A stretch of DNA of 31,938 nt from UHGV virus genome UHGV-0224535; one strand, given 5' to 3'. Below are positions 2,511-6,652 of the stretch, piece by piece (the stretch's first letter is position 1; every line of letters begins with the position of its first letter). The notes beneath the pieces were generated by a model that saw nothing but the letters and a program-made list of their open reading frames with translations, made no database searches and was not told where the DNA came from. A program made the translations under genes and the position numbers. The stretch comes from a virus.

Positions 2511-2726
2511 ATGATTTTAACGTGTCACGGATCTGATCTTGATTGTTTCGAAGACGGTTGTCAGTACGAAGCGGAAAAGCCAGGCGGATTACCGAAAAAC
2601 CCGTTTTTAGTCGTTACAGACACTTACGGTCACTTATGGTATGCAGCGCCCAGCAAGGCGCGTGGCTGGTGGCTGATTCAGAATGAAGATCGCGAGGTTG
2701 TAGTGGCCCTCAGGCAGGACGAATAA
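2511..2726 (+). CDS. small protein, paralogous family member (71 aa)
   Basis: ...CFEDGCQYEAEKPGG...FLVVTDTYGHLWYAAP... matches the family motif; start 2 nt after the upstream stop. Confidence 0.55.
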   Translation: MILTCHGSDLDCFEDGCQYEAEKPGGLPKNPFLVVTDTYGHLWYAAPSKARGWWLIQNEDREVVVALRQDE

Positions 2727-2743
2727 AAAGCGTGATCTACCCC

Positions 2744-2790
2744 CGCAAAGTTTACAAAATGGCATTGTTTCAGCAGTGCCATTTTGTTAT
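2744..2790 (+). promoter_or_regulatory. candidate sigma70-like promoter (TTGTTT, 17 nt spacer, TATAAA) overlapped by a perfect 10-bp inverted repeat CAAAATGGCA / TGCCATTTTG
   Basis: Read directly in the 100-nt gap upstream of the 2829 gene; the half-site ACAAAATG recurs at 18967, 22567, 24476 and 31287. Confidence 0.4.
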
Positions 2791-2828
2791 AAAGAAGCTG
2801 AAGAGAGAACGATGCGGAGGGTAGAAAA

Positions 2829-3107
2829 ATGAAACGCTGGATTAACAAAGAAGTCGAATCTCGCTTAAACGCATTTTGGGAGATGGTGGAGAAAGAAGAC
2901 CCAGCACACGCTGCAAGCCCTTACCTGAACAACATCGAATATCACTACATTGCAGCAAACAACGCGGAGTTCGAAGAAGAAGGTGGAGCCGACAAGTTCG
3001 CACAAAGCAACGCATTCAACAACGCAAACGAAATGATGATGGCAGTCATCGAACAGGCAGAGGAAGACTACGAATGCAAATCACTTGAATTTGCACGCAT
3101 GGCATAA
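2829..3107 (+). CDS. hypothetical acidic protein (92 aa)
   Basis: Track ORF with GGAGGG RBS; strongly acidic (EFEEEGG..., EQAEEDYE). Confidence 0.6.
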   Translation: MKRWINKEVESRLNAFWEMVEKEDPAHAASPYLNNIEYHYIAANNAEFEEEGGADKFAQSNAFNNANEMMMAVIEQAEEDYECKSLEFARMA

Positions 3108-3116
3108 GGGGGAACC

Positions 3117-3257
3117 ATGAACGCTAACGCTAAATATCCGGCCTGGGTTTTCGAACTATACGCCCGCTACTTTGAAGTATTGGCACCAGGTGAAGAAGCA
3201 TTAAGCATTGACGAATACGCGGAGTGCTTAGGATTTAGAGGAGGAGAAGAAGAATAA
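3117..3257 (+). CDS. hypothetical small acidic protein (46 aa)
   Basis: GGGGG RBS 5 nt before ATG 3117; MNANAKYPAWVFELYARYFEVLAPGEEALSIDEYAECLGFRGGEEE*; below the track cutoff. Confidence 0.4.
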   Translation: MNANAKYPAWVFELYARYFEVLAPGEEALSIDEYAECLGFRGGEEE

Positions 3258-3269
3258 ACACGGGGCAGA

Positions 3270-3551
3270 ATGGCCCCATCAAACGGAGTAGAAATTATGG
3301 TTGTGATCAGACTATGGCGCGGAGTTAGTAGGCTTGATGGCACATACAGCCGTGTAATTGAGGTTGTTAACAATAGTATGTTTTATAAACTGGAATACAG
3401 CGAAAAAAGGGAGAATGAATATTTGAGCGAATCGACCCCTATGTGGTGCAAAGTGGCTGGCCTTTCTTCACTTATGCGTTGCGGGTTTTATACAGATTAT
3501 AACACGCTAACAGATGCCGAACTGGTGGCAACTCTTTACGGAGGAGAATAA
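3270..3551 (+). CDS. hypothetical protein (93 aa; alternative start 3297)
   Basis: Track ORF, co-directional packing. Confidence 0.5.
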   Translation: MAPSNGVEIMVVIRLWRGVSRLDGTYSRVIEVVNNSMFYKLEYSEKRENEYLSESTPMWCKVAGLSSLMRCGFYTDYNTLTDAELVATLYGGE

Positions 3552-3554
3552 ACA

Positions 3555-3878
3555 ATGACTAAATTTATCAGTGTTAAAGTTTTCCGTGGCACTATTCCAG
3601 AAAGTGAAAAATACGGCGAATTTAGTGGAATGCCTGGCGCATGTTTCCGTGTAGCTACAGAAGACGATAACCGTGTTAAATGTTTCCACATATCAGAACC
3701 GCCTTTCGATCCAGAACATCTTAAACATCCAGGTAAAATTAAAACGCTTATTTTCGCTTTTCTGACGATTAATCCTTACCCTGATCTTGAGGTTGATTTA
3801 GTCGGCGCGGAACTGGTCGCAGAATACAAAATAACCCCGGCAGAAAGCGGAGATTCTGAAATTGAGCGCATCAAATAA
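3555..3878 (+). CDS. hypothetical protein (107 aa)
   Basis: GGAGGAG RBS then ATG 3555. Confidence 0.6.
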   Translation: MTKFISVKVFRGTIPESEKYGEFSGMPGACFRVATEDDNRVKCFHISEPPFDPEHLKHPGKIKTLIFAFLTINPYPDLEVDLVGAELVAEYKITPAESGDSEIERIK

Positions 3879-4113: not shown

Positions 4114-4306
4114 ATGCCTTATCGCTGTGATTGTTTTGCTTTATATCGCTGGCGCGATCCTGATGTCATGTTTTATTAAGTTTAGCGGCGCTGAACCTGG
4201 TGGCCTTGAGATTCCTTTTTGGCCTGTGACTGTGTTTATCGCTTTCTTCGATGCAACGCTAGTGCAGATTAAGCGAGCCATTAAGGAGCGTAAAAATGGG
4301 AAATAG
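4106..4306 (+). CDS. small membrane protein (about 66 aa, two hydrophobic helices)
   Basis: GAGG 6 nt before ATG 4106 (three tandem ATGs at 4100-4108); MIECLIAVIVLLYIAGAILM...IPFWPVTVFIAFF... is hydrophobic; the track ORF 3986..4306 probably starts here. Confidence 0.5.
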   Translation: MIECLIAVIVLLYIAGAILMSCFIKFSGAEPGGLEIPFWPVTVFIAFFDATLVQIKRAIKERKNGK

Positions 4307-4520
4307 CGACCATCAATATGACGGCGTTTATCAGTCATTGGTGTCACGCGCTTATTATCGCCTTGAAGGTGAACACGTAATGATGCGATCACGCCAGTTT
4401 GAACTGTGGCATGAAACGGTTTTACCTGTGACAGCGAAAGAAGTTATCACGATGTTTAATCACGGACATTGGAGCAAGATTGGCGATATTAAGTTCAGGA
4501 TGTTTAAAGAGGGCGATTAA
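4296..4520 (+). CDS. small protein related to the 4521 and 4700 paralogs (74 aa)
   Basis: AGGAG RBS; ...YDGVYQS... N-terminal motif. Confidence 0.55.
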   Translation: MGNSDHQYDGVYQSLVSRAYYRLEGEHVMMRSRQFELWHETVLPVTAKEVITMFNHGHWSKIGDIKFRMFKEGD

Positions 4521-4703
4521 ATGATTGAAGATGGTATATACGCCGTGAACCTCATTGATGAAATGTTTTACCGCGTGGAGGGTAATGATATTCGTATCAG
4601 TATCGATGGTGGCGAGTGGAAAGAGCCATTCATGGATATGACGCGGGAAATAATTGAAATCATGCTTTATAACGGCGACGTGGTGAAGGTTAGCGACCTG
4701 TGA
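4521..4703 (+). CDS. small protein, paralog of the 4700 gene (60 aa)
   Basis: MIEDGIYAVNLIDEMFYRVEGNDIRISIDGGEWKE versus IEDGIYLHKVFNIVYLLKGNKVMIRPDDDPHWES in the next gene. Confidence 0.6.
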   Translation: MIEDGIYAVNLIDEMFYRVEGNDIRISIDGGEWKEPFMDMTREIIEIMLYNGDVVKVSDL

Positions 4704-4876
4704 ACGAGATCGAAGACGGCATCTATTTGCATAAGGTATTTAACATCGTCTATTTACTTAAAGGTAATAAGGTGATGATAAGACCTGATGACGATCCACA
4801 TTGGGAATCAAGCGGCATGGATCGCGAACACATGCAAACATTGCTTGATAATGGCCTGATATACAGAAAGCAGTAA
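4700..4876 (+). CDS. small protein, paralog of the 4521 gene; GTG start overlapping the upstream stop (GTGA)
   Basis: Similarity to the 4521 protein reaches the GTG codon, supporting a non-ATG start; below the track cutoff. Confidence 0.5.
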   Translation: MNEIEDGIYLHKVFNIVYLLKGNKVMIRPDDDPHWESSGMDREHMQTLLDNGLIYRKQ

Positions 4877-4898
4877 AGCCGTATTTGTTGGGGGTAAT

Positions 4899-5126
4899 AT
4901 GGAAGAAAGGGTTTTGCTGTCATCAATATGGCATCGGTTCGGAAGTGAAAAAGGTTACTCACCTGCTTGCTGGCTGGATAGTAAAAGCGGAAAGGAGTAT
5001 CAAAACGAGTGCGAATTTAGAAGGGAGTGGCGAGGCGGTAAGGAAGTGCAAGGATATTTTGCACCAAAACACGTTGCCGTCAAATACAAAGAATGGCTTG
5101 TTCGTTTGCTTGGACCTTATCGTTAA
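4899..5126 (+). CDS. hypothetical protein (75 aa)
   Basis: GGGGG RBS then ATG 4899; preferred over the overlapping 4885..5160 ORF, which is Cys/Gly-rich and lacks an RBS. Confidence 0.45.
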   Translation: MEERVLLSSIWHRFGSEKGYSPACWLDSKSGKEYQNECEFRREWRGGKEVQGYFAPKHVAVKYKEWLVRLLGPYR

Positions 5127-5191
5127 CGCCGTATTTGTAGAGCGCAAACAAACAGATTAAAATATTTCCTAACAATGCGAAATTGTAATTA

Positions 5192-5215
5192 CCCGGCCCC
5201 GCGCCGGGTTTTTGC
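5192..5215 (+). terminator. rho-independent terminator (CCCGGC-CCCGC-GCCGGG followed by TTTTT)
   Basis: Read directly; separates the early block from the lysis cassette. Confidence 0.6.
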
Positions 5216-5233
5216 TTTGTTGGAGGAAAATCT

Positions 5234-5434
5234 ATGTTCGACAGAATACGGGAGGCGTGTGCGTATGTGACTGGGGCCGTAACTGCTTTTTTCGGCGCGA
5301 TAACCATCAATGACATCGCTGTTTTCGTTGGTATCTTATCAACCGTAGGCACATTTGCCGTTAATTATTACTTCAAATCACAGGAGAACAAGCGGGCGCA
5401 AGAGGAACACGACGCGCGAATGGGGAACAAGTAA
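5234..5434 (+). CDS. holin, probably pinholin-type (66 aa, two hydrophobic segments)
   Basis: GGAGG RBS; two TM-like stretches (ACAYVTGAVTAFFGAITI, IAVFVGILSTVGTFAVNYYF), charged C-terminus; immediately upstream of a SAR-type lysozyme. Confidence 0.75.
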   Translation: MFDRIREACAYVTGAVTAFFGAITINDIAVFVGILSTVGTFAVNYYFKSQENKRAQEEHDARMGNK

Positions 5435-5926
5435 ATGATTAGCCAATCGCTAAAGAATAAGATTATTGCTGCGGCGGCTGGTGGGGCTATCGCTATTGCG
5501 GCGGTGATGATAAAAGATCTTGAGGGTGTGGAGTACAAGCCATACAGAGATGTCATCGGTGTTTACACGATATGTTATGGACACGTCGGAAAAGACATCA
5601 TGCTGGGTAAGACTTACACGCAATCAGAATGCGATGCTTTGTTGAACAAAGATCTTCATAAAACCGCAAAAGCGATTGACCCCTACATTAAAGTCGAAAT
5701 ATCAGATTTTACCCGCGCTGCGCTTTATTCATTCGCCTATAACGTAGGCGCTACCAACTTCAAAACATCAACCTTATTGAAGCTACTCAATGACGGCAAG
5801 AAATCAGAAGCGTGCGCACAGCTTAAACGCTGGATTTATGCTGGCGGTAAGCAGTGGCAAGGGTTAATAAACCGCCGTGATGTTGAATATGCCGTTTGCG
5901 AATGGGGTGAAACATGGAAAAGGTGA
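5435..5926 (+). CDS. SAR endolysin (lysozyme with T4-lysozyme-type catalytic spacing)
   Basis: N-terminal Gly/Ala-rich weakly hydrophobic segment [18 protein letters not shown], then E-x8-D-x5-T in [17 protein letters not shown]; overall resembles phage 21-type SAR lysozymes from memory. Confidence 0.85.
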
Positions 5927-6384
5927 AGACGTTAATTATCGCCGCCATTGTTTGTATTGTTGTTGGGCTTGTTGCCGCGCTTAGTCATTGCCAGTCAGTG
6001 ATAAACACAATGCAAAGCGAGCTAACGACCACGCAAGGCGCACTAAAAACAGCGAGTAACACTATTCAGCAGATGAAGGAGCGAAACGCCGAACTGTCAA
6101 AACTTGATAAGAGGTATCACGATGAAATTAAAGCTATCAGATCTGACATTGCCGATCTGCGCACTGGTATTGATAGCGGCGCTATCCGGTTGCACGTCAA
6201 CGCCGAACCAGTGCGATTGCTCGACAATACCGGAACCGCCAGCCGCATTGATGGAGCCACCTGTAGACTCACTCCAGACGCTGAATCGGCTTATCTATCC
6301 CTCAGAGAACAATTAAAAGAAAAAGACGCGAAGATCACCGGATTGCAGGACTACATCAAAACTCAGTGCTTACGCAAAGAATAA
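5914..6384 (+). CDS. Rz: Rz-like i-spanin (N-terminal TM helix, coiled-coil periplasmic domain)
   Basis: [23 protein letters not shown] then helical charged sequence; overlaps the endolysin stop; contains the embedded Rz1 ORF. Confidence 0.75.
6122..6316 (+). CDS. Rz1: Rz1-like o-spanin lipoprotein, wholly embedded in Rz in the +1 frame
   Basis: AGAGG RBS then ATG 6122; [24 protein letters not shown] has a lipobox (LSGC); proline-rich mature part. Confidence 0.75.
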   Translation: MKLKLSDLTLPICALVLIAALSGCTSTPNQCDCSTIPEPPAALMEPPVDSLQTLNRLIYPSENN

Positions 6385-6652
6385 CAGCGCGTGGACGTGT
6401 CGCCATTTCCGCCAGCCAGCCATAACCGGGACAATCCTTCCCGCGAGCGACGGCGGAAATTCAAAAACACGTAATACCGGATCAACAGTCCCATTAACAG
6501 GTCGGGCGCTACCTGGGTAGAAGAAAGCGCCATTCACCAATTTTATAAAATTCTGGAAACGGTACTGATGAAGCGCCGTTCTCAGTGTTTTATGTCATTC
6601 CTGCCGCTGTATAAACAGGAAGTAAAAGCAAACCAGACAGGAGATTATTCTG

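Follow-up and report, generated by a model that had tools for sequence, protein, structure and literature searches.

The lysis genes of the phage lie at positions 5234-6384 of the window, that is, of the whole 31,938-nucleotide stretch that was analyzed (UHGV virus genome UHGV-0224535). Four genes are found there, all on the + strand: a holin, a lysozyme, Rz, and an Rz1 embedded in Rz. The coordinates were rechecked, and every gene and feature that an earlier sequence-only reading had placed in this interval was found where it had put it. The first gene encodes a class II holin of 66 aa (5234-5434, from ATG at 5234 to TAA at 5434). Its stop codon is directly followed by the ATG at 5435 (TAAATG) of a 163-aa GH24 lysozyme (5435-5926), a strongly supported candidate for an R21-type SAR endolysin. 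The i-spanin gene Rz (156 aa; 5914-6384) overlaps the lysozyme gene by 13 nt, and the 64-aa o-spanin gene Rz1 (6122-6316, ATG at 6122) lies wholly within Rz in the +1 frame. In the profile search, all four proteins exceeded the curated Pfam cut-offs. Terminase and portal genes are located downstream of the cassette. A search of Rfam at gathering thresholds gave no match anywhere in the window.

These are the lysis genes of an Escherichia coli mEp021-like temperate phage or prophage of the mEpimmI group. Across ~25 kb, the window shares 85-87% identity with mEpimmI phages, and the cassette is 88-90.5% identical to theirs at the nucleotide level. The same cassette, with 88-99% nucleotide identity, is present in mEp021, mEp010, mEp013, mEp044, mEp515, mEp554, MagusPhagus, and E. 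coli prophages. At the protein level, identity to the mEpimmI and prophage loci was 89-100% for the holin, 74-95% for Rz, and 69-98% for Rz1; for the endolysin, it was 91-99% at all loci except L036 (53%).

The closest characterized arrangements are those of phage 21 (S21, R21, Rz/Rz1) and the DLP12 prophage (essD-rrrD-rzpD/rzoD), which have the same gene order and an Rz1 embedded in the +1 frame. The mEpimmI backbone, which is that of the window phage, has been described as non-lambdoid (PMC11893012). HP1 resembles the window in that its holin gene immediately precedes that of an endolysin bearing a hydrophobic N-terminal segment; the HP1 cassette differs in its position, as it belongs to a P2-like myovirus and is surrounded by tail genes.

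Holin

The sequence-only reading had described a 66-aa holin with two hydrophobic segments, and these are present: uncharged, hydrophobic stretches at residues 8-26 (nt 5255-5311) and 28-47 (nt 5315-5374), with a charged C-terminal tail. In the mEp021 protein, which is 97% identical, two TMDs are annotated by TMHMM and Phobius. The protein belongs to PF16080, the HP1 holin family (54.1 bits; cut-off 28.8; profile positions 1-53 of 56), to which HP1 Hol itself scores 84.6 bits. With PF04971, the family of phage 21 S, it reached 22.9 bits, under the cut-off of 26. The two families are linked, because some relatives, such as that of locus L047, score above the cut-off for both. BLASTP detected no similarity between the window holin and HP1 Hol, and the relationship to HP1 is thus one of Pfam profile only. 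PHROG 20, a holin family, matched at 3.7e-20, and a search of PDB sequences returned a chance match only (E=1.4, a capsid protein). The exact holin sequence was found on at least 1000 contigs, under the name "holin", and one member of its 90% protein cluster is called "HP1 family phage holin" by NCBI.

Compared with DLP12 EssD, the holin is 27% identical in pairwise alignment (E=6e-6) and shares the two-TMD layout and a T-x3-N-x-YFK motif at the end of TMD2 (T40, N44, Y46, F47, and K48 are identical). Three small residues, A29, G33, and T37, are aligned with G40, S44, and G48 of EssD, the glycine zipper positions of S21. Besides its membership in PF16080 and not PF04971, the window holin differs from the phage 21 and DLP12 proteins in a less polar TMD1. 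Gly, Ala, Ser, and Thr make up 53% of this segment. Using scale values after Hessa et al. (2005), the summed insertion energies were +1.6 for TMD1 and +2.0 for TMD2, versus +6.5 and +0.2 in EssD and +3.9 and +0.5 in HP1 Hol. As TMD1 is not weaker than TMD2, a SAR-like character of TMD1 is not evident from composition.

Another difference from phage 21 and DLP12 is that the window holin has no dual-start (MKSM) antiholin form. It has a single Met start, with no in-frame start upstream and the next Met not before residue 62; the dual-start motif is likewise absent from HP1 Hol. In the distant relatives at loci L047-L050, the holin starts with MHM or MRM.

We consider the protein a probable pinholin, based on its membership in the HP1 holin family and its pairing with a SAR endolysin. 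HP1 Hol kills E. coli without lysis and without leakage of β-galactosidase, and its partner is a SAR endolysin (PMC7312051). The pairing recurs among relatives: of the 62 related loci in which the gene downstream of the holin was readable (two annotated phage records plus 60 IMG/VR contigs), 61 encoded an endolysin with an uncharged N-terminal segment there, and the segment was Gly/Ala-rich in most groups. The suggestion in the sequence-only reading that the holin is consistent with a pinholin partner is thus backed by family and gene pairing; it found no backing in the phage 21 S cut-off or in the relative strength of TMD1.

A rather unlikely alternative is that the protein is a class II holin of the conventional large-hole or another non-pinhole kind that stands beside a SAR endolysin and only times lysis. 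Depolarization would then still free the enzyme, and the lesions would not be heptameric pinholes of ~2 nm. The missed PF04971 cut-off and a TMD1 no less hydrophobic than TMD2 on the summed scale would fit such a holin. SAR endolysins with non-pinholin partners do occur, Mu and N4 being examples. The HP1 evidence is also indirect, and an unusual N-in/C-out topology, unlike that of S21, has been reported for HP1 Hol (PMC7312051). Against a large-hole holin stand the PF16080 membership shared with HP1 Hol and the size of the protein, only 66 aa with two TMDs. The small residues at positions aligned with the S21 glycine zipper also speak against it. In addition, the relatives are nearly always paired with endolysins that have an N-terminal hydrophobic segment, and there is therefore no sign of selection for large holes.

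Endolysin

The lysozyme matched PF00959 with 146.6 bits (cut-off 22.3). Alignment to characterized SAR endolysins, the check that had been proposed for this protein, gave PDB matches to RrrD (4ZPU, E=3e-63) and R21 (3HDE, E=3e-62; 3HDF, E=1.5e-57). RrrD, the R21-like enzyme of prophage DLP12, is 62% identical over the full length. Residues 5-159 of the window protein are included in the R21/RrrD alignment, which therefore covers the N-terminal segment. A catalytic spacing of E-x8-D-x5-T had been reported from the sequence, and the sole match to E-x8-[DC]-x5-T in the protein consists of E30 (5522-5524), D39 (5549-5551), and T45 (5567-5569), aligned with the triad region of R21 and RrrD. The likeness to the phage 21 and DLP12 enzymes thus includes both the SAR segment and the catalytic triad. 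The catalytic Glu30 lies four residues past the N-terminal segment; compared with R21, 6 residues are missing from the linker between them, as the window enzyme lacks the residues of the TGPSGN region found in the phage 21 and DLP12 proteins.

The Gly/Ala-rich start that had been singled out as weakly hydrophobic and SAR-like, and quoted as a stretch of 18 letters, corresponds to lysozyme residues 9-26. The SAR segment proper spans residues 10-26 (nt 5462-5512), with 17 uncharged residues, 59% Gly+Ala, and K7 and K9 ahead of it. Its alignment with the R21/RrrD SAR domain includes a ten-residue block with the string AIGGGAIAIA, and G16-G17 are conserved with the GGG of R21. This GG pair is probably functionally important. 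On the summed scale, the window segment has a marginal insertion energy of -1.05, compared with +0.15 for RrrD and -0.30 for HP1 Lys. Stable anchors are far more hydrophobic (-4.2 for the window Rz and -3.1 for lambda Rz). The only Cys residues of the enzyme are at 47, 66, 127, and 155, and the N-terminal segment has none. HP1 Lys, which is P1-Lyz-like and 30% identical to the window enzyme, does have a Cys in this segment.

These data strongly support the assignment of the lysozyme to the SAR endolysins of the R21 type. From the close homology to R21, whose mechanism is covered in PMC6139136 and PMC9636201, export through Sec, an uncleaved tether, and release upon depolarization are predicted.

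It is very improbable that the N-terminus is instead a cleavable signal peptide or a permanent anchor, which would leave the enzyme constitutively active or always tethered. Compared with the RrrD segment, that of the window enzyme is slightly more hydrophobic, and it contains A-I-A and I-A-A motifs; in addition, T4 RI was first termed a SAR protein and was reportedly found later to be cleaved (PMC8385771). However, A-I-A-I-A is also present in R21, an uncleaved, releasable anchor in the literature (PMC6139136), and the segment can be aligned position by position with the R21/RrrD SAR domain. The motifs at which cleavage might occur are located within the hydrophobic core and not behind it. 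The segment is also kept across 46 relatives and is far less hydrophobic than the true Rz anchors. We therefore rejected a cleavable signal peptide.

Spanin genes

Rz was assigned to PF03245 (88.2 bits; cut-off 25.4) and to PHROG 13 (1.7e-39). It has an N-terminal signal-anchor TMD at residues 6-24, the anchor with a summed energy of -4.2, and a periplasmic domain with many weak matches to coiled-coil families in the Pfam profile search, consistent with a coiled coil. The protein is 32% identical to lambda Rz (E=2e-21). Of its four Cys residues (14, 26, 117, and 152), C152 is aligned with C152 of lambda; lambda C99 has no Cys counterpart in the window protein, which has C117 instead. The exact Rz sequence was found on 21 contigs in a collection of 15 billion proteins.

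An Rz1 with an LSGC lipobox and a Pro-rich sequence had been proposed entirely inside Rz in the +1 frame, and our results bear this out. The offset of its start, (6122-5914) mod 3, is 1, and the gene spans nt 209-403 of Rz, or 0.44-0.86 of its length. The start is within the typical range of 0.4-0.5, and the end is slightly short of the usual 0.9-1.0 (PMC6139136). In lambda, Rz1 is likewise nested completely in Rz, also in the +1 frame. A Shine-Dalgarno sequence, AAGAGG (6109-6114, + strand), lies inside Rz, 7 nt upstream of the ATG, and is identical in all close relatives. The lipobox LSGC occupies residues 21-24 (nt 6182-6193), with Thr at +2; the o-spanin consensus is [LVI][ASTVI][GAS]C (PMC6139136). 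The mature protein would have 41 aa with 7 Pro, compared with 10 Pro in the 40 aa of mature lambda Rz1 (PMC6139136); Cys would occupy positions 8 and 10 of the mature form, one Cys more than in lambda. Rz1 scored 42.7 bits with PF06085 (cut-off 27.9), matched PHROG 3198 at 2.3e-18, and shares 37% identity with lambda Rz1, in which the internal Cys of the mature protein is aligned with C33. The periplasmic Cys residues available for putative intermolecular disulfides are C117 and C152 of Rz and C33 of Rz1.

An embedded Rz1 was present in all 48 loci that carry both spanin genes. The ATG, the Shine-Dalgarno sequence, and an LS[GS]C lipobox were kept in each of the 30 distinct 64-aa Rz1 variants. 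None of the 37 distinct related Rz sequences interrupts the +1 frame across the Rz1 span; when the window Rz was synonymously recoded, this frame stayed open in only 1.8% of 5000 trials. The +2 frame has 7-9 stops. Among the related Rz sequences, third-position entropy was 0.53-0.56 outside the overlap versus 0.25 inside it. This substitution pattern is that of dual coding, with purifying selection in both frames.

Rz1 is therefore strongly supported as a real gene. That the +1-frame ORF is a chance open frame has practically no likelihood: although it is unannotated in all three related records inspected and the 15-billion-protein collection does not contain the exact protein, the Pfam match and likeness to lambda Rz1, the start signals, lipobox, and length kept in 30 variants, the 37 open frames, and the halved third-position variability of Rz inside the overlap effectively refute it.

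The nested gene had been said to be easily missed, which is what we found in the records: no nested Rz1 CDS is annotated in mEp021, in MagusPhagus, or in a 98.9%-identical RefSeq E. coli prophage. These three records name only a holin or class II holin, a lysozyme, and a "lysis protein", with no mention of SAR or pinholin character. Since these records lack Rz1 and the protein collection lacks its exact sequence, surveys that use called genes would count no o-spanin in these common gut coliphages.

Leader and proposed course of lysis

Upstream of the holin gene, we found three elements on the + strand. The first is a candidate late promoter (5135-5176), in which a putative -35 (TTGTAG, 5135-5140) is separated by a 17-nt spacer from a putative -10 (TAAAAT, 5158-5163). 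The sequence TAACAAT (5170-5176), 6 nt past the candidate -10, resembles the -10-like promoter-proximal pause element of lambda pR', where inspection of the sequence shows TAAATT, 6 nt, and AACGAT. TAAAAT and TAACAAT were unchanged in 29 distinct upstream sequences (47 loci), even with a different upstream gene; in the same 29 sequences, the candidate -35 region was not kept in one subgroup. A consensus promoter scan of 4700-6800 returned no more sites than shuffled sequence and did not flag the conserved TAAAAT.

The second element, detected by a terminator scan, is an intrinsic terminator hairpin (5191-5215) with the stem ACCCGGC-loop-GCCGGGT followed by TTTTTG. It ends 19 nt upstream of the start codon of the holin. 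A terminator is annotated at the homologous place in mEp021, and among relatives the stem is invariant and the loop variable. The hairpin would behave like tR', with antiterminated polymerase reading through it. The third element is the Shine-Dalgarno sequence of the holin, GGAGG (5222-5226), read in the sequence. The fold of 5165-5233 had z=-4.8, and in the minimum-energy structure this Shine-Dalgarno sequence pairs with 5168-5175. Both strands of the pairing are invariant among relatives, so it offers no covariation to test, and the variable positions that flank it in the relatives' upstream sequences showed no covariation.

One doubtful possibility is that the mEpimmI clade, which lacks a dual-start antiholin, times lysis through holin expression instead. 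A conserved leader of ~45-65 nt (5158-5233) immediately ahead of the holin start might then, quite speculatively, combine a lambda-pR'-like -10/pause, a terminator, and the strand CUAACAA, which can pair with the Shine-Dalgarno sequence. The gene for a Q-like antiterminator is located more than 6 kb away and not adjacent to the cassette. If this were true, the late promoter/terminator module would be detached from Q and would also throttle holin translation. The paper on the mEpimmI group does not treat the lysis genes or the late promoter, and the words holin, lysozyme, and spanin are absent from it.

Taken as a whole, the cassette most likely acts through a pinholin, a SAR endolysin, and a two-component spanin. 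Late transcripts would read through the hairpin 19 nt ahead of the holin gene, perhaps starting at the conserved promoter-like element just upstream. By homology to R21, the lysozyme would be exported by Sec and held inactive at the inner membrane by its uncleaved Gly/Ala-rich N-terminus. The 66-aa holin with its two TMDs, judging from its family and its gene pairing, would build up, trigger, and collapse the proton-motive force through small holes. Depolarization would free the SAR segment from the bilayer, and the enzyme would refold as R21 does and cut the cell wall. As the SAR segment contains no Cys, this activation would proceed without a disulfide switch, unlike that of P1 Lyz. Rz1 would be translated from its own start within Rz in the +1 frame. 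Rz, anchored at the inner membrane, and Rz1, a lipoprotein of the outer membrane, would form a complex that spans the periplasm and disrupts the outer membrane after loss of the wall.

The cassette implies no new mechanism. Because each of its parts is a member of a well-studied family, it is ordinary apart from the unannotated nested gene. The combination of an R21-type SAR endolysin with a holin of the HP1 family, and not of the S21 family, provides a further natural pairing for studies of partner exchange.

Layout and phage background of the lysis cassette

The lysis cassette occupies positions 5234–6384, and the four plus-strand genes proposed in the sequence-only reading were recovered at exactly the positions it gave, together with all of the strings it quoted. 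The holin gene (5234–5434, +) runs from ATG to TAA, encodes 66 aa, and has a GGAGG 7 nt ahead of its start. The ATG of the lysozyme gene (5435–5926, +; 163 aa) abuts the holin stop (TAAATG), and that of Rz (5914–6384, +; 156 aa) lies 13 nt within the end of the lysozyme gene. Rz1 (6122–6316, +; 64 aa), with an AAGAGG 7 nt before its ATG, is contained entirely in Rz in the +1 frame (one-base offset). The gene order and all protein families are those of the phage 21/DLP12 cassette. The window holin belongs to the HP1 family and not to its sister, the family of the phage 21 pinholin S21. The cassette stays within the known pinholin/SAR-endolysin/spanin scheme, with no departure from it.

The cassette was 88–90.5% identical to Escherichia phages mEp021, mEp010, mEp013, mEp044, mEp515, mEp554, and MagusPhagus, and over its first 25 kb the window aligned to the same phages at 85–87% identity. 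A chromosomal copy was present in 35 of 5426 complete E. coli genomes (top match, 98.9% identity). The mEp021-like phages, which are temperate, Nus-dependent, and non-lambdoid, make up the "mEpimmI" group of coliphages; the words holin, lysozyme, and spanin do not appear in the paper on this group (PMC11893012). The cassette is uncharacterised, and the lysis genes of its phage group were previously unstudied.

The genes for terminase and portal follow the cassette on its downstream side, and a string of small ORFs of unknown function lies upstream. Positions 1–142 are the end of an IS903-type element, 99% identical to the IS903 copies of phages P7 and SJ46; because this end adjoins the small-ORF region of the phage, the window is probably a prophage struck by an IS. 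Three successive small ORFs (4296–4876, +; 74, 60, and 58 aa), all belonging to PHROG 15318 (unknown function), form a tandem paralogous array immediately upstream of the lysis region. Rz is followed by a 268-nt noncoding gap (6385–6652) in which a simple terminator scan found no terminator; the homologous gap of mEp021 carries an annotated one. Between the cassette and the small terminase gene is a 185-aa ORF (6653–7210, +) whose product contains HEAAH, a motif of the HExxH type, and has a C-terminal tail rich in Lys. The ORF matched PHROG 1365 (unknown function), a Pfam search returned no match, and its mEp021 homologue is a hypothetical protein.

Endolysin and holin

The window lysozyme clearly belongs to the R21 group and is predicted to act as an R21-type SAR (signal-anchor-release) endolysin. 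It scored 146.6 bits on Pfam Phage_lysozyme and matched two enzymes of known structure, RrrD (4ZPU, E = 3e-63; 62% identity) and phage 21 R (3HDE, E = 3e-62; 3HDF, E = 1.5e-57). The N-terminal segment falls within the R21/RrrD match, which takes in residues 5–159 (R21 side, AAIGGGAIAIASVLI). R21 is the paradigm of these enzymes and is exported by Sec; it is inactive while held by an N-terminal transmembrane domain (TMD) that requires the PMF, and its release leads to refolding into the active form (PMC6139136; PMC9636201).

The Gly/Ala-rich, weakly hydrophobic N-terminus noticed earlier corresponds to residues 9–26; the segment has 17 uncharged residues, 59% Gly + Ala, and K7 and K9 ahead of it. 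As a plain sum of Hessa insertion energies, its hydrophobicity was −1.05 kcal/mol, compared with +0.15 for RrrD and −0.30 for HP1 Lys, and with −4.24 and −3.09 for the true signal anchors of the window Rz and lambda Rz. The A-x-A-like motifs of the lysozyme fall within the hydrophobic core, and the AIAIA string of its segment also occurs in R21, whose N-terminal segment is described as an uncleaved, releasable membrane anchor (PMC6139136). The catalytic spacing E-x8-D-x5-T was borne out by E30/D39/T45, the sole E-x8-[DC]-x5-T match in the protein. R21 has six more residues (in TGPSGND) linking the SAR segment to the catalytic Glu than the window enzyme, so that Glu30 of the latter sits just four residues beyond the hydrophobic stretch. 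Such a short link is common in the family, since that of more distant relatives is equally short or shorter. The disulfide switch of P1-Lyz is inapplicable because the segment has no Cys.

One IMG/VR relative (L036, IMGVR_UViG_2703718833_000007, 2703–3700) encodes a holin 94% identical to that of the window and a SAR endolysin just 53% identical, whose first 8 residues are exactly those of the window enzyme; about 500 extra bases lie ahead of its Rz. The arrangement resembles a mosaic replacement whose junction falls within the endolysin N-terminus.

The holin has the two hydrophobic segments attributed to it, seen as uncharged stretches at residues 8–26 and 28–47. Its top Pfam family was PF16080, "holin family HP1" (54.1 bits vs. 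a cut-off of 28.8), and it fell below the cut-off of the phage 21 S family, PF04971 (22.9 vs. 26). HP1 Hol scored 84.6 bits on PF16080 and DLP12 EssD 121 bits on PF04971, and both cut-offs were passed by some intermediate relatives (L047, from IMG/VR). BLASTP found no similarity between the window holin and HP1 Hol; with EssD it gave an alignment of 27% identity (E = 6e-6) that takes in the two TMDs and the beginning of the tail. In the EssD alignment T40, N44, Y46, F47, and K48 are identical, and the small residues A29, G33, and T37 lie opposite EssD G40, S44, and G48, which we take to be the S21 glycine zipper; this is a lead, not a test.

HP1 Hol is supported experimentally as a pinholin by cell killing without lysis, no β-galactosidase leakage, and a SAR endolysin partner, and an unusual topology has been reported for it (PMC7312051). 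Gene pairing adds to the evidence: of the 62 related loci having a readable downstream gene, 61 encode an endolysin that opens with an uncharged segment, which most groups have in a Gly/Ala-rich form, and these loci include holins just 42–51% and endolysins just 29–61% identical; the sole exception, L063, has the most distant holin. TMD1 of the window holin is 53% Gly/Ala/Ser/Thr. On the summed scale it is no weaker than TMD2 (+1.6 and +2.0, vs. +6.5 and +0.2 in EssD and +3.9 and +0.5 in HP1 Hol), which counts against over-reading the pinholin case. The window holin has no dual-start motif, and SAR endolysins with non-pinholin partners are known from papers on Mu and N4. These three points call for caution; pinholin function is the likeliest reading and a probable one. 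Distant members of the holin family (L047–L050, IMG/VR) begin with MHM or MRM, the classic dual-start holin/antiholin motif; holins throughout the mEpimmI clade start with a single Met.

The leader ahead of the holin gene

A terminator scan found a hairpin terminator (5191–5215, +) ending 19 nt before the holin ATG, and mEp021 has one annotated at the equivalent place. The stem did not vary among 29 distinct upstream sequences (47 loci), whereas the loop did. The stretch AAACAAAYAGATTAAAATA ... TAACAATGCGAAA was conserved even with a different upstream gene. A promoter-like element on the plus strand, TAAAAT (5158–5163), six bases, and TAACAAT (5170–5176), resembles lambda pR' (TAAATT, six bases, AACGAT), at which Q makes use of the downstream element (AACGAT) as a sigma-70 pause site. 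Conservation of the weak −35 region breaks down in one subgroup; a consensus promoter scan did not flag the TAAAAT/TAACAAT site, and the Q-like gene of the closest prophage is more than 6 kb away on the upstream side.

The RNA of 5165–5233 folds with z = −4.8, and in the minimum-energy fold CUAACAA is paired to UUGUUGG of the holin Shine-Dalgarno region; covariation is no test of this pairing because both strands are invariant. As a lead and no more, 5135–5233 might act as a late promoter/terminator module and at the same time restrain translation of the holin.

The nested Rz1 reading frame

Rz scored 88.2 bits on PF03245, also matched PHROG 13, and shared 32% identity with lambda Rz (E = 2e-21), including a match at the C-terminal Cys152. 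Rz1 scored 42.7 bits on PF06085 (cut-off, 27.9), also matched PHROG 3198, and was 37% identical to lambda Rz1, with C33 opposite the internal Cys of the mature lambda protein. The lipobox LSGC was located at residues 21–24, followed by Thr, and the Pro-rich character holds for the mature form (41 aa, 7 Pro).

To see whether the nested frame is a genuine gene, 62 loci were taken from IMG/VR with the holin as query; a 156-aa Rz with a 64-aa Rz1 was found in 46 loci, the window included. Rz was the most divergent gene of the cassette in these relatives (74–95% identity; Rz1, 69–98%). In all 37 distinct Rz nucleotide sequences, the Rz1 span had 0 stops in the +1 frame and 7–9 in the +2 frame; the +1 frame stays open in just 1.8% of 5000 synonymous recodings of the window Rz. 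All 30 distinct Rz1 variants of the close relatives are 64 codons long, start at an ATG after an AAGAGG, and encode an LS[GS]C lipobox. Third-position entropy of Rz was 0.53 and 0.56 in its two non-overlapping parts vs. 0.25 in the overlap, where first-position entropy (the third position of Rz1) rose to 0.35. This is the pattern expected from two coding frames. Embedded spanins typically start at 0.4–0.5 and end at 0.9–1.0 of the i-spanin length (PMC6139136); the span of Rz1 within Rz, 0.44–0.86, is close to these ranges. The window spanins are of the lambda embedded type.

The nested gene is indeed easily missed: mEp021, MagusPhagus, and the closest E. coli prophage as annotated in RefSeq have no nested CDS, and no o-spanin is among the feature names at the 15 E. 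coli matches listed. The exact Rz1 protein was not found in a collection of 15 billion proteins, in which 21 contigs carry the exact Rz, 115 the exact lysozyme, and at least 1000 the exact holin. The practical value of the cassette finding is this missing Rz1 annotation.

Between otherwise close relatives, positions 6200–6290 (Rz residues ~96–125; mature Rz1 ~4–15) are a hypervariable patch in both frames, with AIPVRVSDSTG as one Rz form and TQYPCECPTPPE as one Rz1 form. The Rz1 Cys pair in the patch is mostly retained, and the pattern suggests recombination or co-variation of interacting spanin parts.
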